Shown in pieces: positions 3,396 to 42,480 of a stretch of DNA of 54,361 nucleotides (position 1 is the stretch's first letter; every line of letters begins with the position of its first letter). The DNA is from Candidatus Gastranaerophilales bacterium (GTDB taxonomy: Bacteria > Cyanobacteriota > Vampirovibrionia > Gastranaerophilales > UBA9971). Below the pieces are notes generated by a model. That model saw only the letters and a list, made by a program, of their open reading frames with translations, was not told the DNA's origin and ran no database searches. Location of the stretch: positions 1-54,361 of the forward strand of contig JANQIY010000092.1 of the NCBI GenBank assembly GCA_028281965.1. Direction: 5' to 3'. A program made the position numbers and the translations under genes.

Positions 3396-3432
3396 TATTC
3401 TTTTCTCTTATAACCAGGTTTTTACTTATTTT

Positions 3433-3616
3433 AACTCAAGTTGCTGCTTATAAATTTTTTCAAAATGCCCGCCCGCCTCACCCTTAGAGGAGTGAAAAGG
3501 CTCCGCCTGCTAAAATGCGGACAGCTCCGCCTGCTTCGCCTTTTCTAATCTATATACATTTTGAAAAAATTTTGTAATGTAAAATAGAGAAATTTTTATA
3601 GACGGCAACTTGAGTT
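3433..3616. repeat. dispersed nested-palindrome element (long form)
   Basis: Terminal inverted repeats aactcaagttgc (3433) and gcaacttgagtt (3605). The internal ttttcaaaatg...cattttgaaaa palindrome and the aatgcggacag..ccgcctgcttcgcc block are shared with the copies at 10108, 41439 and 44400. Confidence 0.8.
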
Positions 3617-3690
3617 TATTTTACTATTTTTTTTCACCTATTTTCAAAGTAGTTACAAATTTTATTTTTGTTTATTTAAATCGTATTTTA
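3612..3690. repeat. left copy of 79-bp perfect inverted repeat
   Basis: The reverse complement of 3612..3690 is identical to 8721..8799, which is the last 29 nt of the MerR-family CDS plus 50 nt downstream. Confidence 0.9.
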
Positions 3691-3748
3691 CTCGAGTTGC
3701 TAATTGCATAGTCATATCCTGGCTTTTGGCTAATTTGCGACTCGAGTT
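3690..3748. repeat. dispersed repeat, core unit with flanking inverted arms
   Basis: Sequence actcgagttgctaattgcata-gtcatatcctggcttttggc-taatttgcgactcgagtt. The arms are near-complementary. Confidence 0.8.
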
Positions 3749-3750
3749 AT

Positions 3751-4971
3751 TTAGCGACTCTCAAGCAGGCTGTTGATTAAATTTTTATACTTTTGCGAAA
3801 TTATGCTCCATTCAAAATTGTTTACTATAAATTTTCTTCCATTTTTCCCCATTTGTTTTGTTTTATCAGGGTTTTTAAGAAGGAGTATGATTTTTTTTGC
3901 CAGCTGTTTAGAATTTTTTTGCTCAACAGCAAACCCATTTATATTATTTTGTACTATATCAGCGATTGCAGGTAAATCAGTCGTAATTACCGGGGTTTGA
4001 CAACTTAAGGCTTCGGCAAAAACAAGCCCGAACCCTTCGCTATCCCCCGAGGATACCGTAATAGAAGGACCTATAAATATATCAGCCGCAGCAAAGTACC
4101 CAGGCAAATTTTTGTGAAGTACCGCGCCCGTAAAAATTATGTTTTTATTAAGGTTTAAGTCCTTTGTAAGCTCTAATAATTTTGTTTTTTCAGGCCCATC
4201 CCCTATTATTAATAATTTTATGTCGGGAAATTCCTTCAAAACCTCGGGAAATGCTTTAATTAAATAATAAAGACCTTTTTTTTCAACAAGCCTGCCGGTG
4301 AAAAGTAAAAAACCGGCCGTAATTTTATATTTTTCCTTGACCGTATGGTTATATTTTGCCGAATCAAACCTGGCAGTATCTATTCCCATTGGTATAACCC
4401 GTATATTATCTTTTTCATAAAGGTTTACTACTTCCTGTTTTAGCGCATTGCTTACACAGGTTATACTATCAGAATTTTTTATAATAAAGCGTTTTAATAA
4501 AGAAGAAAAAGGACTTTTAAATCCGTATATATCAGCTCCATGAGCCGTGCAAAGTAATTTTATTTTTTTATTGAAAAAAATCTTGTAAATTACTGCAACA
4601 AGACCCTGTGGAAGTATCCAGTGAGAATGAATTATATTCATATTATACTTTTTGACCAATTTTATAATGTTTAACAGCTGAAAAAAAAGGAAAAAGGGTA
4701 CTTGAAAGTAATTTAGAGGGCTTTGCCTCAATTTTGGCCCGATTCCCCCTTCATATGCAAGAGAACCAGGGTTAAAAGGGAGATATTTATATCTGTAAAT
4801 AGTGAGATTATCTTTTTTTTCAAAGGTTTTTGCGGTTTTATCAAATGGGGCAAGTATAATGACTTCAAAGGCATCTGAAATATTTTTTGCATAATCATAA
4901 ACAAAGGAAGGAGTTGTATCCCCCTCATATCTTGGAAAAGTAGATGTTATAACTAAAATGCGTTCTTTCAT
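3751..4971 (-). CDS. glycosyltransferase family 4 (GT-B)
   Basis: 406 aa. C-terminal GT4 signature GRLVEKKG ... EGFGLVFAEALSCQTPVI (E-x7-E). It overlaps the upstream GT-C gene by 4 nt. Confidence 0.8.
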   Translation of the reverse strand: MKERILVITSTFPRYEGDTTPSFVYDYAKNISDAFEVIILAPFDKTAKTFEKKDNLTIYRYKYLPFNPGSLAYEGGIGPKLRQSPLNYFQVPFFLFFQLLNIIKLVKKYNMNIIHSHWILPQGLVAVIYKIFFNKKIKLLCTAHGADIYGFKSPFSSLLKRFIIKNSDSITCVSNALKQEVVNLYEKDNIRVIPMGIDTARFDSAKYNHTVKEKYKITAGFLLFTGRLVEKKGLYYLIKAFPEVLKEFPDIKLLIIGDGPEKTKLLELTKDLNLNKNIIFTGAVLHKNLPGYFAAADIFIGPSITVSSGDSEGFGLVFAEALSCQTPVITTDLPAIADIVQNNINGFAVEQKNSKQLAKKIILLLKNPDKTKQMGKNGRKFIVNNFEWSIISQKYKNLINSLLESR

Positions 4972-6812
4972 GATGTCTTTTTCTTAAAAATATAAATATC
5001 CCATACTTTTGTGCTTTCTTTTTCTTTAAGCTCGAGTTCCTGCTTTGCATACTCAATGAGGTCAAAGTTTATTCTTGAATGTATCATATACATTAATATT
5101 TTATCTCTATATGCTTCTTCATTATTATTAGCTATTTCCTTTATTTCTGAGATATCAGGATAAATGACCATAGCTTTAGAAGTAATAATTACGAAAAAAT
5201 TATCATCAGAAATATTTGATAATAATTCCTCTTTTAATCCGGAACCGTTAAAAACATTATCCCGGCAGCCAATAATATCTTTGTAGTAATCGTACATATA
5301 ACTTTCATAATCATTAGTTTTTTTATAGTCTTTATAAAGTTTTGTTTCTTTTAACCTGTTACTTATATATTCACGCCCGGCAATAACCTTTTGCGGCATT
5401 TTGGCATTCATAGTCGAATAATAACCTATTTCAGTTATGTATTTAAGTGGAAATTCGTTTTTTAAGAAGAAGGGAATAAAATGTAAGTTCCAATTATGTA
5501 AGCAGAAAAAAGAACCGGAAAAACTTGGTTTGAAATATTTATGAAAATGACTTTTTTTACCGCCGATCAGAATAAAGTAATCCTTATCAGTAAAATTATA
5601 ACGGTTAAGTATGTCTGCCGCAGGCTTTATCCCAAGACCCCTACTTTGCTTGGAAGCGCTTACGGGAGTAAAAATTAAGAAAAACAGGCATATAGAAACA
5701 ACTAACCCAATTAAAAAATTCGATATAAATTTATTTTTAATCCGTGATAAACCATATGCGGATAAAAGAAGAAATACCGGTGTTACCTCAATTAAATACC
5801 TGCTTACATATACAACCCTGCCTTCAGCGGCCTTTACCGCGAAAATAGCCATGAACCCAACACAGGTAAGCAATAATAATAAATTAACAGGTCTTTTAAT
5901 TACAGCGGTTATAATTCCATAAATCCCTATTATTAAAGGTATAAAGACAAAAACCAGGAAAATTGCCGTAAATACCTGACTTTGCAGGACAAAATCGAGA
6001 TAATTACCGGGCGGGCTTTGATTGGCTATAAGAAAAGGAGAAAAAGAATCTCCAAGAACAAATAATATTTGGTCTAAAGTAAACTTAGACCACCATTGAG
6101 CAGTAATACCGCTGGTTTTAACATTAATAAGCCGGAACATTTTAAATAAAAGAGGAATATACAGGATAAAAACCAAAATACCTGAGTAAATCAAGGGCTT
6201 AAAGGATTTTTTTTGCTTAAATAAAAAATATAACCCAAAAAACAGGAACTCAAAGAAAACAAACACAAAGGAAATGGAATGAGTATATAAAAGCCCGGCA
6301 TTAGCCAGGGCAAGCCCCGTAATATTTAATTTTGAAGGGTTATTGGTTACTTTTAGCAAGAATAAGGTTATAAGGGAAGAAAAAAGAGCAATAAGGGAAT
6401 AGAAACGCAATTCCTGGGAATAGTAAATTAAAAGGGAATTGATTGCGATAAAAAAAGCAGCTAATAGTGCGGTTTTATTGCATTTAAGCTCCTTTCCGCA
6501 AAGGTATGCCGCCAGTATGGCTAATACCCCGAAAATAAGGGGTAGAATCCTTAGAGTTAAGTCGGCTTCCCCGAAAAGCTTTATCCAGAAATGAAGTATA
6601 AAGTAAAATAACGGGGTATGTATATGCCTTATAAAAAATATCTGAAAAAAATCAGTAAAAGACATTTTTGCTTCAAGCCAGGTCTGCATTTCATCAAACC
6701 ATAGACCCCCGGGTTTATCTAAATGCCAGGTTCTCAGGCAAAACCCAAAAAGAATTATTAAAATTAAAAGAATTATATTTTTATTTTCCTTAATTTTTGA
6801 GAATAAAAACAT
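4968..6812 (-). CDS. GT-C family (ArnT/PMT-like) membrane glycosyltransferase
   Basis: 614 aa, multi-TM, with loop motif WFDEMQTW and a soluble C-terminal domain. It is a paralogue of 101..1828. Confidence 0.75.
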   Translation of the reverse strand: MFLFSKIKENKNIILLILIILFGFCLRTWHLDKPGGLWFDEMQTWLEAKMSFTDFFQIFFIRHIHTPLFYFILHFWIKLFGEADLTLRILPLIFGVLAILAAYLCGKELKCNKTALLAAFFIAINSLLIYYSQELRFYSLIALFSSLITLFLLKVTNNPSKLNITGLALANAGLLYTHSISFVFVFFEFLFFGLYFLFKQKKSFKPLIYSGILVFILYIPLLFKMFRLINVKTSGITAQWWSKFTLDQILFVLGDSFSPFLIANQSPPGNYLDFVLQSQVFTAIFLVFVFIPLIIGIYGIITAVIKRPVNLLLLLTCVGFMAIFAVKAAEGRVVYVSRYLIEVTPVFLLLSAYGLSRIKNKFISNFLIGLVVSICLFFLIFTPVSASKQSRGLGIKPAADILNRYNFTDKDYFILIGGKKSHFHKYFKPSFSGSFFCLHNWNLHFIPFFLKNEFPLKYITEIGYYSTMNAKMPQKVIAGREYISNRLKETKLYKDYKKTNDYESYMYDYYKDIIGCRDNVFNGSGLKEELLSNISDDNFFVIITSKAMVIYPDISEIKEIANNNEEAYRDKILMYMIHSRINFDLIEYAKQELELKEKESTKVWDIYIFKKKTS

Positions 6813-8885: not shown

Positions 8886-10115
8886 ATGAATATCCTTGTT
8901 TTAACAGGTTCTGCCAAAAAAGGCGGCACAGAAAGAATTTTTTCAAATTTAATAAACGGTCTAAATCAAGCCCGGGAAAATTATAATATCACCCTGCTTG
9001 TACTGCAGGGAGAAATAGAGTTTGATTATGAATTAAACTGCAAGACCATATGTTTAAAATCGAGTCCCCCGAAGAGCATTTTAAGCTTCTTTTTTTATTT
9101 TTTTAATATGGCCGGGCAGGTACGGCAAATCAAAAAAAAAGAAAATATTAATATCACGATAAGTTTCTTTAACGTGGCTAATATTATAAATATTCTCTCT
9201 ATGAAAGGCGATAAGGTAATTTTAGTTATACAGAATTTTTTATCTGAAAAAGTAAAGGACTTTGGTTTTTTAAAAGGGAATATTTTCAAGTATTTTATAA
9301 AGTATTTTTATAATCTTTCTGATGGTATTGTAGTACCTTCTAAAGGAATGGTATCAGATTTAACAAAAAACTTTGGTATAAAAAAAAATAAAATAAAAGT
9401 TATTTATAATTTTATTAATAAAGATAAAATCCTGCGTTGCGCAAAAGAAGACCTGGGAAAGTTTAGCAGTGTATTTAATTCTCCTGTTCTTATTAATGTT
9501 GGTCGACTGGAAAGACAAAAAAATCAAAAAAGCCTGATTAAAATTTTCAAACTTGTAAAAAACTCAATTCCGGAGGCTAAATTAATAATCCTGGGAGAAG
9601 GAAAACTGGAATCAAGCCTTGTCAAATTATCGGAAGAGTTAAAACTGAGAATATATAAAGACCGGGAGGATGATGGCAACAGCCGTATCATGGAAAACTT
9701 TGATGTATATTTCCTGGGATTTCAGGATAATCCCTTTAAATTTATTGCCGGGTCAGATCTTTTTCTTCTTACTTCCGTATTTGAGTCCTTTGGCTTTGTC
9801 CTGGTTGAATCAATGATATGCAGCACTCCCGTTATTTCTACGGATTGCGGCTCCGGGCCCAGGGAGATAATTGCGCCTGAAACAAGTTTTTTATATAAAA
9901 CTAAAATGCCTGAATATGCTAAATACGGGATTTTGATGCCTGTTTTAAATACTACTTCTTATGAGCAGGTATGGGCCCGGGAAATTATTAAATTACTAAA
10001 AAATAGGGAAACTCTAAACAAATACTCTTCTTTTGGCTTGAAAAGAGCAGGGCAATTCAATTCTGACAAAATAATACCTGCCTGGATAAGTTATTTAGAT
10101 CAGGTCGCCAATTAG
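8886..10115 (+). CDS. glycosyltransferase family 4 (GT-B)
   Basis: 409 aa. Motifs GRLERQKNQ ... FESFGFVLVESMICSTPVIS (E-x7-E). AAAGGAGAA RBS upstream. The stop codon lies in the dispersed repeat. Confidence 0.8.
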   Translation: MNILVLTGSAKKGGTERIFSNLINGLNQARENYNITLLVLQGEIEFDYELNCKTICLKSSPPKSILSFFFYFFNMAGQVRQIKKKENINITISFFNVANIINILSMKGDKVILVIQNFLSEKVKDFGFLKGNIFKYFIKYFYNLSDGIVVPSKGMVSDLTKNFGIKKNKIKVIYNFINKDKILRCAKEDLGKFSSVFNSPVLINVGRLERQKNQKSLIKIFKLVKNSIPEAKLIILGEGKLESSLVKLSEELKLRIYKDREDDGNSRIMENFDVYFLGFQDNPFKFIAGSDLFLLTSVFESFGFVLVESMICSTPVISTDCGSGPREIIAPETSFLYKTKMPEYAKYGILMPVLNTTSYEQVWAREIIKLLKNRETLNKYSSFGLKRAGQFNSDKIIPAWISYLDQVAN

Positions 10116-10312
10116 CCAAAAGCCAGGATATGACCATGCAATTAGTGCTCAGTTAAGTTAATTTTGCAGGACTAATTTTGTTTATGAGGGTTTTTCAAAA
10201 TGCCCACCCTCCTCTCCCTCAGAGGTGGAAAAGGCTTCGCCTGCCAAAATGCGGACAGCACCGCCTGCTTCGCCTTTTCAAATCCGTATACATTTGGCAA
10301 ATTAACTTAACA
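10108..10312. repeat. dispersed nested-palindrome element (inverted orientation)
   Basis: Contains the rc core aattagccaaaagccaggatatgac and the block ttttcaaaatgccc..agaggtgg..aaaatgcggacagcaccgcctgcttcgcc. It sits between convergent genes. Confidence 0.8.
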
Positions 10313-10317
10313 ATGCA

Positions 10318-11160
10318 TTAGCGGCCCGGGTTTATTAAGGTAAAAACTTTATATCTTAATAAAGAAGGGGTTATTTTAAAAAGAGATATTAATATTATGT
10401 TTTTTATTGCCATTAATAAAAAATATAACTTAATTTTTAATAAATTCCCTAAAACTTTACTTAAACATTTATATTTTATATAACGCGCCTTTAGTACGGG
10501 TAAAAAATAAGGTTTCTCATAGGGACTGTTTGCGGAGACTCCTCCTCCCAGGCAACTTGCTATAACTTTATTTTCCCTTTTAAACCTTAATTTTTTATTA
10601 TAATAGAAATCAAGAAGCATTATTATATCACCGGCTGTTCTTTCATAATCTTCATTTAACACAAATTTATTTTGCTTTATTATACCTGTTTTAACAAAAC
10701 AGGCCTGATGTCCTGGAATATGAAGCCAAAACTCCTTTTCCGGCTTCACGGATTTTATTAATTTAGGAATTTTATTGTTTCCAATGTAAAAAGTATGATA
10801 ATGATCCCCATATATCACCTCTTCTTCAATGTTTTTATTCTTAAAAATCTTTTCCAGTATATCGTCCGTATAAAAAAAATCCCCGGCATTCATAAAGTTT
10901 ACCCACTCCCCTGTTGCCAGGTCAATTCCCTTATTCATCGCGTCAAAAATCCCTTTATCAGGTTCACTTTTCCACAGGGTAATTTTATCTTCATATTTCC
11001 TGATTATATCAAGGGTTCCGTCTGTTGAACCGCCGTCTATGATTATGTATTCAATATTAGAGTACGTCTGGTTTATAACGCTCAGTACCGTCTGTTCAAT
11101 ATGGTCTTTTGCGTTTAATACAACCGTTACGACAGTTATAAGAGGATTTATTCCATCCAT
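10318..11160 (-). CDS. glycosyltransferase family 2
   Basis: 280 aa. N-terminal ITVVTVVLNAKDHI..SVINQTY..IEYIIIDGGSTDGT signature. Confidence 0.8.
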   Translation of the reverse strand: MDGINPLITVVTVVLNAKDHIEQTVLSVINQTYSNIEYIIIDGGSTDGTLDIIRKYEDKITLWKSEPDKGIFDAMNKGIDLATGEWVNFMNAGDFFYTDDILEKIFKNKNIEEEVIYGDHYHTFYIGNNKIPKLIKSVKPEKEFWLHIPGHQACFVKTGIIKQNKFVLNEDYERTAGDIIMLLDFYYNKKLRFKRENKVIASCLGGGVSANSPYEKPYFLPVLKARYIKYKCLSKVLGNLLKIKLYFLLMAIKNIILISLFKITPSLLRYKVFTLINPGR

Positions 11161-12236
11161 TCGGTGATAACCTCTTTTACTTTATCGACAGTTATTAAAT
11201 TAATGTCAAGAGTTGATGCGTATTTATATTTTTCAACCAAGTCATCCGTATTACATAGGTTTTCTTCAATCTGAGGCGGGAAAATACAGGTTACAAGTTC
11301 TGTAATCTCCTTTGGATATGGAATAAAACGTTTAAAGGTATTTCCGTTAGAAAGGCAAATCACTTTAGTATCAACAGCTACAGCTATATGATAGAAACTT
11401 GTATCTCCTGACATCACAAATTCAGCATTTTGAAGGACATAGGACAAATCCATAAGGGAAGTTTTGCCGCATAAATTTATTGTATCCGTATTTTTAGCAA
11501 GCTTTTGTATCTGTTTTGCCGGAATTTTATCTTTTTTACTTCCGCAAATTAATATATTAAAAGCTTTTTCTTTTGCTAGAAAATCTGCAATACCGGCAAA
11601 GTTTTCAGGGTTCCATTGCCTGTTTGGACGGGAAGCCCCGGGGCAAATAACTACATATTTATTTTTTGGCGGTTTTATTTTTGATTTATACGAACCCGGC
11701 TCAATAAAAGGTTTATTAATATTTATTTCTTCCTGCAATAAATTTTCAAAAAATTCTTTATTCCTTAAAAACTCAAACATAACTTCATTTTTAGCTGGAA
11801 TTATCCTGGTATAAAAATCATCCGCCAGTGTTTTTTTACCTCCGGTAATATTTGTCAAATCTCCTGCGTTTCCTATTTTTTCCTCTGCATTAACAGATTT
11901 AATAATTGATTCCGTAATATGATAGTCTCTTGAGTAAACGGGATTTATTAAAATATCAAATTTTTTTTGGTTTAATTTATAATTAACAAGCAATTTATAA
12001 AACGGATTATATTTATAGTGCAGCCTGTTTAACGGGATAAATTCATCGAGATACTCTAAATCAATGTTTTTTGCCAGGTTTTCATAAACAAAATTTCCCA
12101 GTAGCGTAATTTTATAGTCTTTATATCTTTCGCTTTGTTTAAGTATTTTTATAAAATTCCTGAATAAAACATAGTCTCCAATAAGATCAGGTCTTATCAA
12201 AAGCAGTCTTTTTTCTTTTTTTAAAATATTATTCAT
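11148..12236 (-). CDS. glycosyltransferase family 9 (heptosyltransferase-like)
   Basis: 362 aa. C-terminal GT9-type motif SGDTSFYHIAVAV and overall GT9 length and layout. Confidence 0.65.
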   Translation of the reverse strand: MNNILKKEKRLLLIRPDLIGDYVLFRNFIKILKQSERYKDYKITLLGNFVYENLAKNIDLEYLDEFIPLNRLHYKYNPFYKLLVNYKLNQKKFDILINPVYSRDYHITESIIKSVNAEEKIGNAGDLTNITGGKKTLADDFYTRIIPAKNEVMFEFLRNKEFFENLLQEEININKPFIEPGSYKSKIKPPKNKYVVICPGASRPNRQWNPENFAGIADFLAKEKAFNILICGSKKDKIPAKQIQKLAKNTDTINLCGKTSLMDLSYVLQNAEFVMSGDTSFYHIAVAVDTKVICLSNGNTFKRFIPYPKEITELVTCIFPPQIEENLCNTDDLVEKYKYASTLDINLITVDKVKEVITEWME

Positions 12237-12844: not shown

Positions 12845-12907
12845 TAATGTTTCTTTTATTTTTAGAAAAACAAAAGAAAATACTTTTTCTAAAAACTCCA
12901 CTAATAT

Positions 12908-13066
12908 ACTCGAGTTGTTAATTGCATGTATGCAACATTTGCCAAAACCCACCCACAGCCACCCTAAAGGTGGAAAAGAGGCGGAGCCTCTTTTCGATTC
13001 TCTATAATTTTTTGGCAAATGTTGCATAGTCATATCCTGGTTTTTGGCTAATTAGCAACTCAAGTT
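12908..13066. repeat. dispersed nested-palindrome element (short form)
   Basis: Arms actcgagttgttaatt / aattagcaactcaagt. Inner perfect 18-bp palindrome arms atgcaacatttgccaaaa / ttttggcaaatgttgcat, hairpin ccaccctaaaggtgg, and core copy at 13029. It is co-oriented with the copy at 41439. Confidence 0.85.
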
Positions 13067-15550: not shown

Positions 15551-15790
15551 TTAAATACGGTTAAATAACGAATATTTGTTAAAAATAAATACTATTAAAT
15601 CAATTAAAACCCCCAGAATTTTTTCTTCCAGAAACTCCGGAATAACAGGAATATCAACTATTTTATTAATAATTTCAATTACTTTTTGTTTCTTTTCTTC
15701 CCCGGATTCAGGTATGTTAAAAAACTCTTTTTCTATCTCTATTATTGTGTTAATAAGCTTTTTGAAAAATTCCATATTAATAATCTCCAT
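15551..15790 (-). CDS. small lysis-cassette protein (LL-H holin-family-like motif)
   Basis: 79 aa. SGEEKKQKVIEIINKIVDIP...LIDLIVFIFNK resembles the conserved block of LL-H-type holin-associated proteins. It overlaps the endolysin by 14 nt. Confidence 0.35.
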   Translation of the reverse strand: MEIINMEFFKKLINTIIEIEKEFFNIPESGEEKKQKVIEIINKIVDIPVIPEFLEEKILGVLIDLIVFIFNKYSLFNRI

Positions 15791-16223
15791 ATAATTTTTT
15801 TAAACCTTCATCAATAGATGTATATTTGCCAATAACCTGTGACCACCTTGCTTTATAACCTCTTACATCAAGGTGGAAACCGGGCTTAAACCAGTCAGGA
15901 TAAACTCCTAATCCTACAAAATCTTCAGTCTGAAATTCTTTTAAAACTTTTATCATAATTTCATAAGCTTCTAATGCGGTAATGTTTTCAAAATGAAAAT
16001 CAGCTGCATTTCCTTTATAATGCTGAGAATTAAGACTATGCCCGGATGTTTCATAGGCACAATGAATTATGCAGGGGGAAATCCTTTTGTATTTATTCCA
16101 ACAGTATTCTTTGACCCTGTCTGTTATTTTATCCAGAAGCAATACCAGAAGCCCGTTTATCTTGTTTTTATCTCCCCATTTTTCACCGGGATTAAAATGT
16201 TTTACTTTTAACCAAATAGACAT
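15777..16223 (-). CDS. peptidase M15 family endolysin
   Basis: 148 aa. Motifs SGHSLNSQHYKGNAADFHF and GFHLDVR fit the zinc-ligand H/D/H pattern of M15 cell-wall peptidases. Confidence 0.75.
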   Translation of the reverse strand: MSIWLKVKHFNPGEKWGDKNKINGLLVLLLDKITDRVKEYCWNKYKRISPCIIHCAYETSGHSLNSQHYKGNAADFHFENITALEAYEIMIKVLKEFQTEDFVGLGVYPDWFKPGFHLDVRGYKARWSQVIGKYTSIDEGLKKLYGDY

Positions 16224-16224
16224 T

Positions 16225-16392
16225 TTAAAACCTTTTTCCTAATAAATGTTCCAGAATCATATCTATTTTTTTATTCAACCCCTTTATTTGCTCGTGTATA
16301 GGGCAGCTTTTTTCGTGTTTTTCCAATATATGGCTTACGTATAAGACCATTCCAAGAGCAACGGGCAAGGGCATTAAATCAAGCCAGTTCAT
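16225..16392 (-). CDS. putative holin (unannotated 55-aa ORF)
   Basis: MNWLDLMPLPVALGMVLYVSHILEKHEKSCPIHEQIKGLNKKIDMILEHLLGKRF has one TM helix and a charged C-terminus. Its stop lies 1 nt from the endolysin ATG. It is below the track length cut-off. Confidence 0.5.
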   Translation of the reverse strand: MNWLDLMPLPVALGMVLYVSHILEKHEKSCPIHEQIKGLNKKIDMILEHLLGKRF

Positions 16393-22928: not shown

Positions 22929-24071
22929 TTAAAAGTTGTTTAAGGAGTTTTGCCTTTCTTTTACCAAAGCGAGAAACTCCAGGGAAGTTTTTTGCAGGGC
23001 ACTAATCAATTCCTGCCCGGAATGCGCCTCGATGACAGGAGAATATACAATATCCCGGCTTGTCCGGTTTTTTGGGTTGAGTATATTGAAAAGTTTTGCC
23101 TGTTGTGATGGGCTTAAGAGCATTTCAGAACCGTGAGCGGTAATAGGTACAGATTGCGAAGAGTCTCCGGGAATAACCCCGCCTGAGCTGTAAGTAAGAT
23201 TTTTATTTATAATTTTGCCGTAAACGTCTTTCTGTACTTCTGTTCCGTCGTCATCATCATCTTGCTCATCATCATCTTCGTTGTCTTCATCTTCGTCGTC
23301 GTCTTCGTCACCTTCGTCTTCACCGTCTTCGTCGTCTTCATCTTCATCGTCGTCCTGGCTTTTTTCCCTTTCTCTTTTTATTTTTTCAACAGCTTCGTGC
23401 ATTTGATCCATTTTTTCAGGGAGTTCAGATATTTTTTCGTTAAAAGTTTCCAGAGTTTTTTGAAAACTTTCGTTGTCTATAAGATTATTTAATTCATCTG
23501 AAGTGTTTTGTAAGGTATTTTGAAGCTTGTCAAAGTTTTCGGGCAAATCCATCATAGCTTTTTTGAAGTTATTTTTTAATTCTATTATGGAGTCACAAAC
23601 TTCTTGCAAGGAATCCATCTCTCTTGCCCAGCCTTTATAAGCCTCTTCAACAGGAGTTATTGCCATTTTAGCAAATAAACCAAGAGGAATAAAAGTTGTT
23701 ATAAAAGGAAGTCCATGTATTCCAAGAGTTTTAGGCAATCCATATTTTTCATAATCTCTGTTGATTTCTTTTGCTAAGTCAGCCAGATTTAAACCTTTAA
23801 CGAGTTTAGCACTCCCTTTAAAGAATTTAAGATTTTTACGTGCTTCTTTAAGATCTTCTTTCAGGGTTTTATTTAGTTTTCTGGCATAAGTATTATCGTT
23901 TTTTGCCAGCGACTCATAGCTTTCGCCAACACTTTCAAGATATTGTTCTAATTTTTTTAAGGCTTTTTCTATTTGTTCTTTTAGATAGTATTCTGATGCT
24001 TTAGTTATATATGGTTTATATTTGTTTTTTTTATTATTTTTATCAGATTTTCCAGTCACAATATACTCCAA
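22929..24071 (-). CDS. tape-measure-like protein, paralogue A (with poly-acidic tract)
   Basis: 380 aa with a hydrophobic segment and a helical region. It has a D/E tract of about 40 residues and the C-terminal block GGVIPGDSSQSVPITAHGSEMLLSPSQQAKLFNIL. Confidence 0.55.
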   Translation of the reverse strand: MEYIVTGKSDKNNKKNKYKPYITKASEYYLKEQIEKALKKLEQYLESVGESYESLAKNDNTYARKLNKTLKEDLKEARKNLKFFKGSAKLVKGLNLADLAKEINRDYEKYGLPKTLGIHGLPFITTFIPLGLFAKMAITPVEEAYKGWAREMDSLQEVCDSIIELKNNFKKAMMDLPENFDKLQNTLQNTSDELNNLIDNESFQKTLETFNEKISELPEKMDQMHEAVEKIKREREKSQDDDEDEDDEDGEDEGDEDDDEDEDNEDDDEQDDDDDGTEVQKDVYGKIINKNLTYSSGGVIPGDSSQSVPITAHGSEMLLSPSQQAKLFNILNPKNRTSRDIVYSPVIEAHSGQELISALQKTSLEFLALVKERQNSLNNF

Positions 24072-24579
24072 TTTTATACAAAAAGCTTTTTCTCATTGCT
24101 TTTTGGTCTAAATTGTTTTGTTTTAAATTAGATTCAATATATTCTAAAGTTTTTTCTTTAAAATCTTCGGGGTCGGGAACGATAAGAATTTTAGGGAAGA
24201 AAGAATTAGAAAGTTTAAAAAATAAAGTACTGATGTTTTGTAAGTCATAGATTATTTGGCTTAAATCAGAAGTTGCAGGCTTTATAATACCGATATAAAT
24301 TATATTTTTTAGCCAAATGCACTTATGTTTGAAAAAAATATTTTGATAAACAATTTTTTTATTAGTTAAAATGACGTTTGAGCATAAAGAATAAATAAGC
24401 CAATATGTTAAGAAAATAAGTAAAAAAATTACTATTAAAACTATTTTACTTTTATTTAAGCCCGGCAAAAGATAAAATATCAATGCTATACAGGTTATAA
24501 TTATAAAAGAATATAGAATTTTAGTTATAAGTGTTCTTTTAGGTTTAAAGATTATTATTTCATCCTTATCCAGCTTCAT
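24043..24579 (-). CDS. membrane protein, bacterial PH-domain (DUF304/bPH_2)-like, moron copy 1
   Basis: Start at the MKLDKDEIIIFKPK Met (ATG 24579, AAGGA RBS). Two TM helices are followed by LTNKKIVYQNIFF, typical of bPH_2 proteins. The track N-terminal extension translates the duplicated leader. Confidence 0.55.
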   Translation of the reverse strand: MKLDKDEIIIFKPKRTLITKILYSFIIITCIALIFYLLPGLNKSKIVLIVIFLLIFLTYWLIYSLCSNVILTNKKIVYQNIFFKHKCIWLKNIIYIGIIKPATSDLSQIIYDLQNISTLFFKLSNSFFPKILIVPDPEDFKEKTLEYIESNLKQNNLDQKAMRKSFLYKIGVYCDWKI

Positions 24580-24612
24580 GATAGTCCTTTTTTGGTTTAT
24601 ACAACAGGGACA

Positions 24613-24688
24613 ATTATATCCGGAAAACACCTCATAATTAAGCGGCAATTATCACGGAAAACTTCCGTATTTTAAGGAAAAATTCCTT
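24613..24688 (-). promoter_or_regulatory. moron leader with promoters and GGAA-N3-TTCC palindromes (copy 1)
   Basis: Minus-strand TATAAT (24618-24613) and TTAAAA-16-GATAAT (24675-24648). Palindromes acGGAAaacTTCCgt (24654-24668) and aaGGAAaaaTTCCtt (24674-24688) occupy the spacer and the -35. Confidence 0.4.
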
Positions 24689-24735
24689 GATAATAAATAT
24701 TATGAAAAAATTATTATTATCTTTTGTCATAATTA

Positions 24736-25239
24736 TTATTCCAGTTGATAAAGCCAGTCCTGATTTAAAGAATTGTCTTTTATGTTGTTATAAATATATT
24801 CCATAGTAATTTCCTGAAAATCGTCAGGTTCAGGTGTTAAAACTCTTCTTTTAAAAAATTTGCCGGACAGTGTAAAAACAAGCTTTCTCAGGTTTTGCAA
24901 ATCAAACATTAACGCAGACTCTCCTGAAAAGGAAGATTCAATTTCAATGTCTACTATATCTTTTAACCATATGCTTTTAGTAATAAAAAAAATATTTTGA
25001 TATAAAACTCTTTTATTGGTTAATAAAACAGGAGAAAGGAACATATGGATACTTAATAGGGTTGTAAGTAACATAATTGCTGCCAATATTATATGGTCAA
25101 AACTATGAGTTATAATTGCTACCAATAAAATATAACCAAGCGCATAGAGAGTTAATGAAAGCAAAATTGTATTAAAAATTTTAGTAAAAAGGTTTCTTTT
25201 AGGTTTAAAGATTATTATTTCATCCTTATCCAGCTTCAT
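24736..25239 (-). CDS. membrane protein, bacterial PH-domain (DUF304/bPH_2)-like, moron copy 2
   Basis: It has the same MKLDKDEIIIFKPK N-terminus (ATG 25239) and the same RBS as copy 1. Two TM helices are followed by LTNKRVLYQNIFF. The body has diverged from copy 1. Confidence 0.55.
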   Translation of the reverse strand: MKLDKDEIIIFKPKRNLFTKIFNTILLSLTLYALGYILLVAIITHSFDHIILAAIMLLTTLLSIHMFLSPVLLTNKRVLYQNIFFITKSIWLKDIVDIEIESSFSGESALMFDLQNLRKLVFTLSGKFFKRRVLTPEPDDFQEITMEYIYNNIKDNSLNQDWLYQLE

Positions 25240-25330
25240 GATAGTCCTTTTTTGTTTATACACCAGGGACAATTATATCCGGAAAACACCTCATAATTAA
25301 GCAGTAATTATCACGGAAAACTTCCGTATT

Positions 25331-25527
25331 TTAAGGAAAATTTCCTTTGAGATATTTTGTAAGGCATTTTGAAACTTGTGAAAGTTTTTGGGCAAACCCA
25401 TCATAGCTTTGCAAAATCTTTATAAGCCTAACGTGAAATAAAACAGTGGTTTTTTGATTGTTTTTTAACTTGCATATATTATTACGGAATTTCTCCTTGA
25501 GCCATAAGGAAATTTTCCTTAAAAACT
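25331..25527 (-). pseudogene. decayed tape-measure 5' fragment / non-coding remnant
   Basis: 25346-25412 is ~85% identical to 23497-23565 inside paralogue A. In the homologous frame it reads AMMGLPKNFHKFQNALQN versus AMMDLPENFDKLQNTLQN, is interrupted by stops and has an internal deletion. The track ORF 25331..25576 uses a different frame. Confidence 0.45.
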
Positions 25528-25757
25528 CAAGGCTGCATAAGCTGGCTAAAAGCCTGCTTGTTTCTTTCCTCAACATTATTTTTGCCGGGAGCGTTTACTT
25601 CCATGTATTTATAAGCCAATACGGATAATTTCCGCGGAGTTAAGCACCAGAATTCTTTTTCACTCATTTTTAAAAGCACGGTTGCACAGTAGTAAAGCCA
25701 GGCCCAGTCCCATTTACTTTGATTATGGCTATCAGAACCCGGCTTTATGAGTTTTTT
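25527..25757 (-). CDS. -1 frame extension of tail assembly chaperone (GT-like fusion, ~184 aa with 25758..26080)
   Basis: The -1 frame is open from the slippery site to TGA at 25529-25527. It encodes ..SKWDWAWLYYCATVLLKMSEKEFWCLTPRKL.., matching the DW..L...FW.LTP.EL motif of chaperone extensions. Confidence 0.7.
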   Translation of the reverse strand, partial: KKLIKPGSDSHNQSKWDWAWLYYCATVLLKMSEKEFWCLTPRKLSVLAYKYMEVNAPGKNNVEERNKQAFSQLMQP

Positions 25758-26080
25758 GATTCTGTTTCCGGGTTTTGTTGAGGAATAGCCCTGACAATAG
25801 CAAGATTTACCTGCCCGCCAATTTCTTTTAGCCGGGAAAGATCAAACATTTTGCCGACTTCTCTTGTGGTCAGGCTTTCATTTTCATGAAGCAATCCGGC
25901 TCTAAGCACGTTTATAATAGCCTTTATACTGCCGGAGGAAAGCGCGGCCATTGCCTCGTCAATCGAGCCGTAAATCTCTTCAAGCTCAGCAAAAGCATTC
26001 AGGTCATAATGCAGGTGTTTTGTCTCATTATCAATTATTATAGGGGTTTTTTTCTCTCTTATATCGTTTAAATTGCTCAT
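25745..26080 (-). CDS. tail assembly chaperone (G-like zero-frame product)
   Basis: 111 aa. The YDLNAFAELEEIYGS...LRAGL pattern is typical of TAC proteins, and it sits between tube and tape-measure genes. Confidence 0.7.
   Translation of the reverse strand: MSNLNDIREKKTPIIIDNETKHLHYDLNAFAELEEIYGSIDEAMAALSSGSIKAIINVLRAGLLHENESLTTREVGKMFDLSRLKEIGGQVNLAIVRAIPQQNPETESKNS
25751..25757 (-). promoter_or_regulatory. programmed -1 frameshift slippery heptamer A_AAA_AAC
   Basis: The zero-frame codons tcA AAA AAC lie 2 codons before the TAC stop, and the -1 frame continues for 74 further codons. Confidence 0.7.
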
Positions 26081-26090
26081 AAATACACCC

Positions 26091-26119
26091 TTATGTTCTT
26101 ATCTAAATTTTGGTATAAT
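26091..26119 (+). promoter_or_regulatory. extended -10 promoter (TGgTATAAT) for antisense moron
   Basis: TGG at 26111-26113, TATAAT at 26114-26119, and a weak -35 TTATGT at 26091-26096. The promoter lies inside the 5' end region of the minus-strand TAC gene. Confidence 0.5.
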
Positions 26120-26146
26120 AATTTAATCAAATTTGGAGTAACAATA

Positions 26147-26428
26147 GTGGAATTAATAATATCTTCAATTACTTTATTAACGGTCATAGTTGGTTTTTTA
26201 GGACTGCTTATAATGATGCTCCGGCTCCATAACCAGGTAAGAACAGAAGTTAGAAGCCAGATCAGTGAATTTAAAAAAGAAGTAAGAATGGAAATATCTG
26301 AAATCAAGCAGGAAACCAGGGACCTGAAGCAAGAAATCAGGGATTTAAAACAGGAAATAAGGATTACTAATATGCGAATAGACAGCTTATACCGGGAATT
26401 ATTTAAAAAAGACCAGGATGTAGCCTGA
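26147..26428 (+). CDS. TM plus coiled-coil protein (plus-strand moron)
   Basis: The GTG at 26147 lies 8 nt after GGAG (26135-26138). The track ATG 26093 falls inside the predicted -35. There is an N-terminal TM helix followed by the tandem repeat ETRDLKQEIRDLKQEIR. Confidence 0.5.
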   Translation: MELIISSITLLTVIVGFLGLLIMMLRLHNQVRTEVRSQISEFKKEVRMEISEIKQETRDLKQEIRDLKQEIRITNMRIDSLYRELFKKDQDVA

Positions 26429-26926
26429 TTAAATTGTCATATAAGGAATTTCCAGCTGAATTTTACTTCTGTAGCCGTAAATAATACTCTTAAACTGTTG
26501 TAATTTTTGCACAGGAATCCTTTGAGGTTTTTCCTCGTAAAAATGCCTGTAGCTGAAATCCCAATGGCCCGCGTGAATGCCCTTTTTTTCGATTAATTGG
26601 TATCTTCCGTCAAGGATCCCATATAAAACAGCCCGCTTATAACCCTGCTTAAGAGCAAAATCAAGTGCAAAGGAAGCTACGGTATAAGCGCCGAACAAGT
26701 CTATATTTGGCTCAAAAGGCAAATAAGGCTCATACAAGCTCCCGTTTCTCTTGTATACGCAGTTTCCAAAGCTTTTATTATCTATCCATAACCGGTAATC
26801 TACAAAAGGAAAGAACTCGGGGAAGCGGTTAAGACCTATTGAAGGATATTCCTTCAACAAGTCAAAAACCTCATCCCCAAGTTCAGAAATACGGTCAGAA
26901 CAGCCGAAAATTTGTATTGTATCCAT
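26429..26926 (-). CDS. hypothetical protein (faint MptE/Maf DUF115-like pattern)
   Basis: 165 aa between the tube and TAC genes. The pattern GAYTVASFALDFALKQGYKRAVLYGILDG resembles the T-V...A...A...G....I.L.G.D block of DUF115-type folds. The assignment is weak. Confidence 0.4.
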   Translation of the reverse strand: MDTIQIFGCSDRISELGDEVFDLLKEYPSIGLNRFPEFFPFVDYRLWIDNKSFGNCVYKRNGSLYEPYLPFEPNIDLFGAYTVASFALDFALKQGYKRAVLYGILDGRYQLIEKKGIHAGHWDFSYRHFYEEKPQRIPVQKLQQFKSIIYGYRSKIQLEIPYMTI

Positions 26927-31331: not shown

Positions 31332-32571
31332 CTTTTACTCCCCTTGAATCTTTGCTGTCAATCTCAAAATCCCTGTCATTAAGCCCATAATTTTCAATAT
31401 AATAAGACTTAGAAAACTTAACGCCCTGCTTAACAAGAATCTCATCACGTTCCGCCAGGGCCTTGTTAACGTCTTCTTCCTCAAACATGGAAAATTCGGG
31501 AATTTCGCCGCTGTTGAAGTTAATTTCCCAAATCCACCTGATAAGGCGGTTATGAGTCCTCTCCACAATTTTTTTATCAGAATAAACAATATCCTTTCTC
31601 ACCTCTGCATGAACCTTCCCAAGCGCATAAGAACCTGTCCCCTTGCTGGTTATGTCAGTTGTCAGGGTCTGCCCGAGAATTGCCTTTGAAATAGAGCTGT
31701 CACAGGTATTTATAAGGTTCTCGTACAGGTCAGAACTGGTGTTTCTGTTGCCCGGCTCAATAAAATTAAGCTCGGCATCATCGGAAATAACAGCCACAGC
31801 ATCCATTACCATAGCTTCCAGTTGGTCTTTCATGTTTTCCCGGTCAGAATCCATGGTTGAGCGGGGAAGCTTTCCGACGATATAGGGCATTCCGTATTTT
31901 TCAGCAAACGTTACCCACCATTTAAACCCTGATTTCTTAAAAGTAACGGGCCAGAAACACGAGGACAAAACCCTGTCCCCATAAGGGTTGTAGTAGTGGT
32001 TATTTATATCGTTATAAGTCGGCGTCAGGAACTTTTTATCAGGCAAAACCTCTCCGCTGATGCAGTTATTTATTGTGGACAGCCTCAATTTTGAGTCCTT
32101 ATCATATAAAAACCATTCCTGGTTTTTGGGGATAAGCTCAACAGGCAGGATATAATTCCCAACCTTGCCCCAGATGACTTCTATAGGCTGAAACCCGAAC
32201 ATCGGCGCATTGAGGATTGCCTGGTTAAAAGCGTGAATATCAAGATCATTATACAGGTCATAAATGAGCTTAGCCTGTTTTGACTTGCTTTTACCCTTGT
32301 CTATTTCCCACAGGAGACTTAGTATCCCTGATTTCCTGCTGTTAACGCACGCCCTGACCTGTGAATCCACCATTAACTTACGGTAAGCGGAAACATCCTT
32401 ACCGGTATTTTGAAGGATTTCATCAGGGTCGGGAAGATATCCCAGGATAAAATTAAGGTCAACCCGCTCACGTTTTGCTAACTCCTGCCCTAACAGCCTG
32501 GGCGCTTCTTTGTAGTGATATTTTGCCCTTTGCTGCGGTGTTTTTTTCTTAAAAAAATCAAGTAAATTCAT
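31324..32571 (-). CDS. portal protein (Mu gp29 / DUF935-like)
   Basis: 415 aa. N-terminal LPDPDEILQNTGKDVSAYRKLMVDSQVRACVNSRKSG matches the DUF935 portal signature. Confidence 0.7.
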   Translation of the reverse strand: MNLLDFFKKKTPQQRAKYHYKEAPRLLGQELAKRERVDLNFILGYLPDPDEILQNTGKDVSAYRKLMVDSQVRACVNSRKSGILSLLWEIDKGKSKSKQAKLIYDLYNDLDIHAFNQAILNAPMFGFQPIEVIWGKVGNYILPVELIPKNQEWFLYDKDSKLRLSTINNCISGEVLPDKKFLTPTYNDINNHYYNPYGDRVLSSCFWPVTFKKSGFKWWVTFAEKYGMPYIVGKLPRSTMDSDRENMKDQLEAMVMDAVAVISDDAELNFIEPGNRNTSSDLYENLINTCDSSISKAILGQTLTTDITSKGTGSYALGKVHAEVRKDIVYSDKKIVERTHNRLIRWIWEINFNSGEIPEFSMFEEEDVNKALAERDEILVKQGVKFSKSYYIENYGLNDRDFEIDSKDSRGVKDE

Positions 32572-41029: not shown

Positions 41030-41440
41030 ATGAAAACATCAGAAAGATTAAAATATATTAGACAACAAACAGGATTAAGCCAGGAAAGGTTTGCTGACCT
41101 GCTTAAAGAAAAATTGAGCAGGATTAATAGCATTGAAGCCGGTAAACAAGCAAAATTTCCGTATGATTTAGCGGAAAAAATCCTTAAAACTTTTCCGGAG
41201 CAATACTATAACTTTAAGTGGCTGACCACCGGGGAAGGAGAGCCTTTTATCAAGAATATTCCGCGTAAATTAATACAAAAAGCCGAAAAAATTGCTGAAA
41301 AGCTTTTAAGTAAAGTAACGGATGCAGAATTTGAACTTTTAATGAAATGTTTAAAAGAAAACAAAGAATTAACAATAATGTTCCTAAAAAAACTCCAAAA
41401 TGATGAAAGATCAATTAAAAGTTTTTTATTGGATAATTAA
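41030..41440 (+). CDS. CI-like phage repressor (HTH)
   Basis: 136 aa. RLKYIRQQTGLSQERFADLL...INSIEAGK...WLTTGEGEPF matches the CI-repressor HTH family signature WLxTGEG. Confidence 0.7.
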   Translation: MKTSERLKYIRQQTGLSQERFADLLKEKLSRINSIEAGKQAKFPYDLAEKILKTFPEQYYNFKWLTTGEGEPFIKNIPRKLIQKAEKIAEKLLSKVTDAEFELLMKCLKENKELTIMFLKKLQNDERSIKSFLLDN

Positions 41441-41667
41441 CTCGAATCTCTAATTGCATACATGCAATATTTGCCAAAACCCAACCATGAATGAGCTACT
41501 GCGTTAGCTCCCGCTGCCGCGCACAGCCACCCTAAAGGTGAAAAAGAGGCTACGCCGCGAAATGCGGACAGCGCCGCCTGCTTCGCGCCTCTTTTCGATT
41601 CTCTATAATTTTTTGGCAAATGTTGCATATTCATATCCTGGCTTTTGGCTAATTCGCAACTCAAGTT
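41439..41667. repeat. dispersed nested-palindrome element (long form)
   Basis: It is collinear with 12908..13066 and has the same orientation, but carries two internal insertions, including the aatgcggacagcgccgcctgcttcgc block. It overlaps the CI-like stop codon. The track ORF 41437..41676 is its translation. Confidence 0.85.
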
Positions 41668-41682
41668 TTTAAGCATTCAGGG

Positions 41683-42480
41683 TTAATCATTTGGCAGGAC
41701 AAATCCATATTCTTTTAGTATTTTTTGCCCGCTTTCTCCTGAGAGAAATTCCACGAATTTTTGCGCGATTTGTTTTTTGGCGGAATTCTGCAAAACCGCA
41801 ACAGGATACTCTGCAGTCACGTTGAACTTCTCATCAATTTGCACAGGCCTGATTTTATCGGAATTTTCGTTTGTTATGTCTGTTGCGTAGACTATGCCTG
41901 CATCAACCTCGCCAAGTTCAATTTTTGCAACGACGCTTTTTACGTTTAGCTCTTTGCTTATGATATTTTTAAGGAATTTTTCCTTAAAATCAGCGGGAAA
42001 ATCCTGTGATTCCCGGATTTTACCAAGCACGGCAAGCGTATACCTGCCGGCAGGGACGGCTTCATCTGCTATGGAAATTTTTACCCCGGGCTTTGCAAGG
42101 TCTTTTAATTCGCCAACACCCGTTAATTCCCTGTTAATCACCGCAGTAAGCCTGTTTTTAGCTATTATTACAGGACTTTTAGCAAGGTTTTGCCCTACTA
42201 AAATGTTCATATACTTTTGATTTGCGCTGGCAAAAACATCAGCATATATCCCCTGCCGTATTTGTTGTGCCAGCTTTTGGCTTCCTGCAAAGTTAAGCTC
42301 GACTTCAATTTCCGGATATTTTTCCTCAAATTGTTTTTTCGCCGCGGTAAAAACCTGTGTCATGCTTGATGCGGCCATTACCCTTATACTTGTTGCGGTT
42401 TTCTTTTGCCCGCATCCTGAAAGGGTAATGACAGATATAACCACAACAATTAAAGTTATGTAATCAGCAATTTTTTTCAT
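41683..42480 (-). CDS. modA: molybdate ABC transporter substrate-binding lipoprotein
   Basis: 265 aa. Lipobox LSGC, with IRVMAASSMTQ..., FASAN and AEYPVAV blocks typical of ModA. It overlaps the ferredoxin gene by 4 nt. Confidence 0.8.
   Translation of the reverse strand: MKKIADYITLIVVVISVITLSGCGQKKTATSIRVMAASSMTQVFTAAKKQFEEKYPEIEVELNFAGSQKLAQQIRQGIYADVFASANQKYMNILVGQNLAKSPVIIAKNRLTAVINRELTGVGELKDLAKPGVKISIADEAVPAGRYTLAVLGKIRESQDFPADFKEKFLKNIISKELNVKSVVAKIELGEVDAGIVYATDITNENSDKIRPVQIDEKFNVTAEYPVAVLQNSAKKQIAQKFVEFLSGESGQKILKEYGFVLPND

Follow-up and report, generated by a model that had tools for sequence, protein, structure and literature searches.

A 54,361-nt stretch of contig JANQIY010000092.1 (positions 1-54,361) of a Candidatus Gastranaerophilales bacterium (GCA_028281965.1), referred to here as the window, carries a ~28.6-kb prophage-like element whose tail genes are interrupted by a ~2.6-kb accessory block. 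This block lies between GT, the frameshift product of the tail assembly chaperone gene G, and the tape-measure gene TMP2, and it consists of two related genes for predicted membrane proteins (B and A), an additional paralogue of the tape-measure gene (TMP1) and pieces left over from earlier copies of TMP1. A and B belong to a new, very small orphan family, previously undescribed, with a predicted PH-like fold. We tentatively propose, at a probability of about 0.4, that the two proteins serve the lysogen as inner-membrane superinfection exclusion proteins acting on the formation of the tape-measure channel. The kind of niche is a known one, that of a tail-operon moron at the junction of chaperone and tape-measure genes; what is unusual is the combination of apparently stacked alleles with homogenized leaders, an extra tape-measure paralogue, and operator-like dyads specific to the locus.

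The proposed mechanism would place the A and B proteins in the inner membrane of the lysogen, where they would disturb the formation of a channel by the tape-measure proteins of related phages arriving at the cell and in this way block DNA entry. The two alleles would differ in the range of tape-measure variants they cover, and an exclusion gene adjoining the tape-measure gene would stay matched to the entry route of the phage that carries it. This reading draws on the accessory status of the genes, their deviant base composition, the integrated state of the element, the promoter-like leaders, the signs of selection, the predicted membrane embedding, and a genomic position equivalent to that of HK97 gp15. 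HK97 gp15, correctly cited as a precedent in a first-pass annotation of the sequence, is an inner-membrane moron with chromosomal homologues that is encoded between the chaperone and tape-measure genes and prevents DNA from entering the cell (PMC3594210). A and B resemble it as small, predicted inner-membrane proteins encoded at the same junction, with chromosomal homologues and a G+C (GC) content unlike that of the neighboring genes (PMC3594210). In contrast to HK97 gp15, A and B are larger (167-178 aa) and are predicted to combine a hairpin of two helices with a cytoplasmic PH-like domain of ~110 residues, and the locus has two diverged copies with homogenized leaders, a co-inherited extra tape-measure paralogue, and no terminator. 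Neither protein has a YebO/gp15 match in Pfam, NCBIfam or PHROG.

Gene A (24579-24043, minus strand, 178 aa) and gene B (25239-24736, minus strand, 167 aa) are the two AT-rich open reading frames (ORFs) singled out in the first-pass annotation, and both are confirmed. Their GC contents are 0.236 and 0.278, compared to 0.408 for G, 0.44 for the major tail gene and 0.407 for TMP2; for positions 24001-25000 the value is 0.25, with surroundings at 0.355-0.44. The proteins are 47% identical to each other and have in common the N-terminus MKLDKDEIIIFKPKR and the block LTNK(K/R)(I/V)(V/L)YQNIFF, both as annotated. Protein B is 77% identical in amino acids to its orthologue P0003, encoded by L008, a contig of a Candidatus Gastranaerophilales metagenome-assembled genome, with a ratio of nonsynonymous to synonymous substitution (dN/dS) of 0.15 at a dS of 0.95; between A and B the ratio is 0.21-0.28. 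These low ratios indicate that A and B are real genes under purifying selection. The closest relatives of A are B and the L008 protein (42-44% identity), followed by P0004 (35%).

Among IMG/VR relatives, GT is joined directly to the tape-measure gene in L001, L002 and L017, all of which are without the family, indicating that it is not a universal component. The earlier view that A and B interrupt a normally contiguous junction thus stands, with the amendment that the insert also holds TMP1 and TMP1 fragments. In L003, a reverse-strand lipoprotein-like gene (L003 6107-6454) sits between GT and the tape-measure gene, and this different insert indicates that the site accepts insertions repeatedly. 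Of the features that define morons in HK97 and HK022 (PMC3594210), the locus shows absence from the same junction in relatives, together with deviant GC content, but not a terminator of its own.

The chaperone gene G (25745-26080, minus strand, 111 aa) matches phrog_2115 (E 8e-18) and, weakly, Phage_TAC_12, and its product is 73% identical to the L001 chaperone and 67% identical to that of L002. A canonical -1 slippery heptamer, A AAA AAC, is found at 25757-25751, four codons ahead of the G stop. In L001 and L002, both the frame and the sequence of the T extension of GT (25527-25757, minus strand; …WDWAWLYYCATVLLKMSEKEFW…QLMQP, then stop) are kept. On the other side of the block, TMP2 (22904-22089, minus strand, 271 aa; phrog_24676, E 8e-10) is the counterpart of the single tape-measure gene in L001 and L002 and is the ancestral tape-measure gene of the locus. 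The additional paralogue TMP1 (22929-24071, minus strand, 376-380 aa, with a likely GTG start at 24059) shares only its C-terminal 84 aa with TMP2, at 40% identity, and has no counterpart in L001 and L002; it is present in L008 at 36% identity. TMP1 contains one hydrophobic segment (residues ~111-137) and an acidic run (23247-23357) of ~37 residues, nearly pure Asp/Glu, which arises from an imperfect 9-15-nt periodic repeat; the L008 TMP1 also has an acidic, non-identical region. For tape-measure genes, those of this phage group are unusually short (241 aa in L001, 202 aa in L002 and 271 aa for TMP2). In the more distant L017 the protein has 996 aa (2293-5283), and the C-terminal motif GG.V.G.FSQ..P..AHG.EM.LNP.QQ is found there too.

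The regions upstream of A and B are nearly the same. An earlier estimate had put this near-identity at about 150 bp (24541-24690 versus 25201-25349); the near-identity is real and the bounds are now set at 24517-24688 versus 25177-25347, a unit of ~172 nt that contains a single 1-nt indel and is 94-95% identical (a repeat finder reports 24517-24597/25177-25257 at 94% and 24589-24688/25248-25347 at 95%). In a three-way alignment with a sliding window, identity between A and B is 91-100% over the leader and the first ~15 codons and then falls abruptly to 30-60%, in line with the annotated divergence of the remaining coding sequence; past codon ~15 it peaks only locally, at the conserved protein motif. 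Leader B (25240-25347, minus strand) contains palindromes at 25333-25347 (AAGGAAATTTTCCTT) and 25313-25327 (ACGGAAGTTTTCCGT), and leader A (24580-24688, minus strand), which is ~95% identical to leader B, contains them at 24674-24688 and 24654-24668; each includes the ribosome-binding site AAGGA.

Each leader probably carries a sigma-70-like promoter, as its sequence suggests. The hexamers TTAATT and TATAAT, separated by 17 nt and located ~30 nt upstream of AAGGA, occur in leader B (25300-25295 and 25277-25272) and in leader A (24641-24636 and 24618-24613), and both hexamers and their spacing recur in L008, in the 114 nt that separate its single-copy gene from a divergent upstream gene. Given this divergent arrangement, some promoter must lie in the gap. 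The promoter-like elements described in the first-pass annotation are thus present in each leader, but across the region such sites are not enriched (22 found versus 16.9 +/- 4.9 expected), and they are consensus matches only.

Upstream of the promoter hexamers, the leaders hold two 15-bp dyads, AAGGAA-N3-TTCCTT and ACGGAA-GTT-TTCCGT, with centers 20 bp apart, the second of which sits within a further promoter-like match, TTAAAA-16-GATAAT. The core GGAA-N3-TTCC occurs seven times in the 54-kb window, with five of the seven occurrences within 24656-25518 (1.6 expected). The two outside the locus, in a host substrate-binding protein gene (41973-41983) and in the portal gene (31865-31875), are probably due to chance, and the palindromes were not found in the presumed regulatory region of the prophage. 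L008 is without the two leader dyads. We infer that the dyads are operator-like sites limited to this locus. The leader palindromes were also considered as terminators and rejected, as they are AT-rich and have no U-tract. A riboswitch or other known RNA element was likewise dropped: Rfam returned no meaningful match to the leaders (one chance-level match to HIV_FS2, E 0.58), and folding of the leader RNA gave only mild stability (z = -2.35).

The leader and first-codon identity is the result of recent sequence exchange, by gene conversion or a recent recombination joint. At the synonymous sites of codons 1-16, A and B differ by 0.06 but B and its L008 orthologue by 0.51, and the proximal leader of B matches that of L008 at only ~77% identity, so constraint on the nucleotide sequence cannot explain the identity between A and B. 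The gene-conversion-like homogenization suggested earlier is therefore borne out, while the accompanying idea of duplication followed by divergence proved too simple. The split between A and B is older than that between the window and L008, given that the nearest relatives of A are B and the L008 protein. Moreover, L008 has one copy, with TMP1 directly after it, and in the window a remnant of the TMP1 start (24709-24730, minus strand; the first ~8 codons, ATGACAAAAGATAATAATAA) directly follows B, collinear with the B-to-TMP1 junction of L008. These three observations point to stacking of alleles rather than duplication in place: B and A look like two alleles that were stacked by recombination between related phages, and their leaders and first ~15 codons appear to have been homogenized recently, after the stacking.

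Further remnants lie upstream of B. A decayed fragment from the middle of a TMP1-type gene, here called TMP0 (25342-25429, minus strand), abuts leader B, which likewise speaks for stacking, and has an internal deletion; its positions 25342-25410 are 86% identical to TMP1 23493-23561 over 69 nt, and 25409-25429 matches 23624-23644. Directly after the GT stop, the degenerate start of a third leader (25478-25525, minus strand) comprises AAGGAAAATTTCCTT, 7 nt, AAGGAGAAATTCCGT and then AATAAT, and holds a 7-codon ATG mini-ORF that resembles what is left of a TMP1 start. With three nested remnants at one locus (TMP0, the TMP1 start and the third leader), it could be argued that one or both copies are themselves debris, non-functional passengers of illegitimate recombination among tape-measure paralogues. 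We consider this very improbable, since both ORFs are intact, the dN/dS values are low in both comparisons, and the family motifs are kept in both copies.

To place the family, we searched 1.84 billion cluster representatives with a profile and recovered ten proteins including the query; iterated searches added three, for a family size of ~13 members among ~15 billion proteins. The members are 155-178 aa long and have the same layout, with the exception of one 323-aa protein with two repeats, and the family appears restricted to Melainabacteria (Vampirovibrionia) and their prophages; two members have named sources, both of them Melainabacteria/Gastranaerophilales MAGs. A word-based protein search with A alone found only the A and B of the window, and an exact look-up of protein B gave no match. 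Among GenBank phages there was no DNA or protein match to the region, to A or to TMP1, and scans of IMG/VR and JGI metagenomes revealed no additional copies of the family, of P0003 or of TMP1.

Known families are similarly distant in sequence. A and B have no PHROG, PADLOC or NCBIfam match and no Pfam match above threshold, the best being DUF6585 at 19.8 bits versus a cut-off of 27.7. Searches with PF03703 (bPH_2/DUF304), the family to which the first-pass annotation had likened them, gave no match for A, B or 14 relatives, even at E<=10 or E<=1. Apart from the distant relative P0011, no family member reaches the gathering score of the bPH_2/DUF304, bPH_3, bPH_6 or DUF6585 models. P0011, the most distant relative (E 2.5e-4 to the family profile), matches bPH_6 above its cut-off (26.9 versus 22 bits); sub-threshold Pfam matches of family members include bPH_3 (0.011), Vps36 GLUE (0.017) and GRAM (0.073), and the conserved block (V/L)(I/L)LTNKR(I/L)(I/L)(Y/F) can be aligned to the core of bPH_3. 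Nothing was found when PDB sequences were searched with a profile.

The bacterial PH-like character claimed for A and B therefore fares better at the level of fold than at the level of DUF304 membership. An AlphaFold model built on a 7-sequence alignment is of moderate confidence (pLDDT 63, pTM 0.54), and an earlier model from a 2-sequence alignment (pLDDT 44) was discarded. For gene A the model predicts β1 at residues 9-11, helices at 17-42 and 44-65, six β-strands, and a C-terminal helix at 137-153. When this model was compared with the PDB using Foldseek, nearly all of the top 50 matches were PH, GRAM, GLUE or bacterial PHb domains, including the myotubularin GRAM-PH domain, 3hsa and 3dcx (target TM-scores ~0.5), the BTK PH domain and Vps36 GLUE, with weak E-values (7e-3 to 0.2) and query TM-scores of ~0.35. 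A phage "Bacterial PH domain protein" was among the top three matches to viral models in BFVD. With moderate confidence, the fold is predicted to be bacterial PH-like, with a membrane hairpin placed between β1 and the rest of the domain; β1, the six further strands and the C-terminal helix are in keeping with the helix-capped, seven-strand β-sandwich of the PH-like superfamily (Pfam clan CL0266). As is predicted for A and B, membrane-bound bacterial PH families carry two membrane helices near the N-terminus, ahead of a cytoplasmic PH-like β-sandwich and a C-terminal helix (PMC2817789), but in the A/B family, unlike bPH_2/DUF304, bPH_3, bPH_6 and DUF6585, β1 precedes the hairpin.

Hydropathy reveals one hydrophobic block of ~50 residues per protein (residues ~15-72), which AlphaFold splits into two helices, in agreement with the two membrane helices annotated earlier. 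Six Lys/Arg residues lie in the first 20 positions and a Lys-rich segment follows the second helix. From this charge distribution, the hydropathy and the modeled topology, A and B are predicted to be inner-membrane proteins with both termini and the PH-like domain in the cytoplasm, and the outward, periplasmic loop is predicted to be just 5-7 residues long.

The genomic positions of other family members bear on the choice between exclusion and a role in the phage's own assembly. Most members are found in phage tail clusters, typically directly ahead of the gene that occupies the tape-measure position and in its orientation, as in the window, L008 and L009. In L008, a reverse-strand phage-type gene is followed by the B orthologue, a TMP1-like gene and a TMP2-like gene. 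In the NCBI assembly L005, the tail terminator, major tail, G and GT genes are followed by a multi-pass membrane protein of 226 aa, then by a family member, a membrane protein of 253 aa and, last, a second family member; as in the window, this single cluster holds two diverged paralogues, here 20% identical to each other. L007 has a terminator, a family member and a protein of 287+ aa with a hydrophobic segment. In L009, the terminator and major tail genes are followed by a family member at the G/GT position, no G/GT gene being present, then by a 478-aa protein in the tape-measure position with hydrophobic Gly/Ala-rich segments, and by distal tail genes. Homology among the downstream neighbors of L005, L007 and the window was undetectable, and the idea that every downstream neighbor has a membrane segment fails on the TMP1 of L008, which has no hydrophobic segment.

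The clusters of L005 (3047-7393), L007 (7562-9349) and L009 (3782-11125), each with a family member, begin at the tail terminator gene and have no head genes upstream; what lies upstream is CBASS and patatin genes, MarR/TPR genes, or TniB, integrase and radical-SAM genes. These clusters may be prophage remnants or tailocin-like elements, and L009, a tail-only cluster, may be a tailocin-like element.

A further member lies outside a phage context: P0014 (170 aa), from Melainabacteria bacterium GWF2_37_15, is encoded between purQ and purL with no phage genes nearby. Its gene (L010 8001-8513, also in L011-L014; six contigs) belongs to a purC-purS-purQ-(52 aa)-[gene]-purL-purF operon, and the protein is 59% identical to the second L005 paralogue.

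The main rival to exclusion, somewhat unlikely in our estimation, is a partner expressed late: a membrane-anchored PH-like protein that holds, chaperones or neutralizes the tape-measure paralogue in the producing cell, which could serve tail assembly or shield the producer from pore-forming segments of its own protein. Such a role would account for the way in which, in the window, L008 and L009, a family member directly precedes a co-oriented gene at the tape-measure position, for the L005 and L007 members upstream of unclassified proteins with hydrophobic segments, and for the L009 member standing where G/GT is missing. The overlap of gene A with TMP1, the lack of a terminator in the window and the gaps of 4-25 nt in L007 and L009 are also consistent with it, as are the B-TMP1 synteny common to the window and L008 and the predicted cytoplasmic location of the PH-like domain and both termini, where a newly made tape-measure protein would be. 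However, the family is wholly absent from L001, L002 and L017, the TMP1 of L008 has no hydrophobic segment, and one member resides in a purine-biosynthesis operon away from phage genes. Between the window and L008, B has kept 77% identity but its neighbor TMP1 only 36%, a mismatch that argues against tight co-evolution, and the deviant GC content and promoter-bearing leader are moron-like.

A related reading, in which the family would be a dedicated membrane partner of tape-measure-type proteins and not a free-standing exclusion moron, seems quite unlikely. It would act either as an "immunity" against membrane insertion of the cognate paralogue or as a membrane-anchored substitute for G/GT, the latter option being raised by L009, where the family gene stands precisely in the place of G/GT. 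Immunity proteins of pore-forming colicins, inner-membrane proteins encoded beside the membrane-inserting protein on which they act, offer a conceptual likeness without homology.

Several observations weigh against superinfection exclusion. The L007 and L009 family members lie 4-25 nt from neighboring tail genes, with no room for a promoter, and together with the G/GT position of the L009 gene this tight packing means that a late, assembly-linked role fits as well as exclusion does. No terminator-like site is found on the minus strand between 24000 and 25350 and the last codons of gene A overlap the start of TMP1, so any transcript begun in the leaders would continue into the tail genes. The original designation of A and B as morons thus holds for their accessory status and deviant GC content, while a self-contained moron transcription unit is not supported. 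The lack of PADLOC and PHROG matches, the moderate confidence of the AlphaFold model, the weak Foldseek E-values and the very short predicted periplasmic loop count on the same side.

Proteins with known or suspected roles in exclusion give partial guidance. The protein Orf2 of bIL285 (sie285), at the lactococcal sie position, is described as a membrane PHb protein and is produced in lysogens (PMC6127208), and matches bPH_3 (E 7e-23) and SHOCT. As a prophage-encoded, membrane-associated PH-domain protein at the position of an exclusion gene, it is a partial precedent for A and B. It differs from them in that it lies in the lysogeny module, in the integrase-repressor interval, whereas A and B lie in the tail operon, and in that a membrane hairpin is not evident from its sequence; alignment of bIL285 Orf2 with the A/B family by hhalign gave a probability of 0.3. 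Resistance in lactococci has been shown for sie309 and sie312 (PMC6127208), which have no PH match, so a direct link to the active lactococcal Sie proteins fails, again to the detriment of exclusion. SNIPE shows that, during injection, the tape-measure complex can be engaged by a protein that is anchored in the membrane and has cytoplasmic domains (PMC13190303). The likeness of SNIPE to A and B is conceptual only, as they have neither homology to it nor a nuclease domain.

Another reading is a role in lysogenic conversion or defense that has nothing to do with DNA entry, with A and B as an abortive-infection membrane effector or sensor, or as a modifier of the envelope or of membrane stress responses. 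Bacterial PH proteins that associate with membranes have been connected with envelope stress (PMC2817789) and are found in phage lysogeny modules (PMC6127208), a chromosomal family member occupies the pur operon, and CBASS and patatin genes adjoin the L005 cluster, with patatin also beside those of L007 and L009. We regard this as unlikely, given that there is no PADLOC match and no effector domain past the PH-like fold, and that it leaves the recurrent place beside tape-measure-type genes unexplained.

The element as a whole is integrated in the bacterial chromosome. Glycosyltransferase genes occupy 0.1-12 kb of the window and radical-SAM and ABC-transporter genes occupy 42-54 kb, and the ~28.6-kb element between these two blocks of host genes encodes a Mu-type portal, terminase, a capsid gene, the major tail gene and a 1299-aa fiber gene. 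It is bounded by direct repeats at 12902-13066 and 41434-41667 (81 nt at 96% and 54 nt at 81%), which overlap two ORFs with the common product sequence MQHLPKNYRESKRG. No integrase gene was seen within the ~28.6 kb.

Two other genes, both between the major tail gene and G, are non-canonical: a 165-aa gene (26429-26926, minus strand), with a faint MptE-like/DUF115 match and kept in L001 and L002, and a 111-aa gene on the opposite strand (26093-26428, plus strand), with a membrane segment and a coiled coil and kept in L001 (7653-7934). L002 carries four accessory genes (139, 235, 131 and 77 aa, two of them for membrane proteins) after its distal tail gene, at 9479-11368.

A likely lysis cassette (15551-16392) lies downstream of the fiber gene. 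It includes a candidate holin, a 55-aa single-helix protein (16225-16392), an endolysin-like gene of 148 aa with a SxHxxGxAxD-type peptidase-like motif (15777-16223), both read from the sequence, and a 79-aa protein; none of the products has a Pfam match at E<=1e-5. A holin role for A and B is unlikely, considering that these candidate lysis genes, read from ORF sequences only, are ~8 kb away and that A and B carry a predicted folded cytoplasmic domain of ~110 residues.

If exclusion is the function of A and B, they would represent a second, unrelated family doing the job of HK97 gp15 at the same genomic junction, and would strengthen the idea that exclusion genes stay beside the tail gene they counter. 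If instead the family partners tape-measure-type proteins, the tail clusters of Melainabacteria would carry toxin/immunity-like pairs, each composed of a tape-measure protein and a PH-like membrane protein. The practical value is limited, as the hosts are uncultured; nonetheless, the two putatively stacked alleles, with homogenized promoter-leaders and very different hairpins, would be a natural pair with which to address the specificity of exclusion. For this orphan family, from a poorly known lineage of gut and groundwater bacteria, these results provide a first functional lead.

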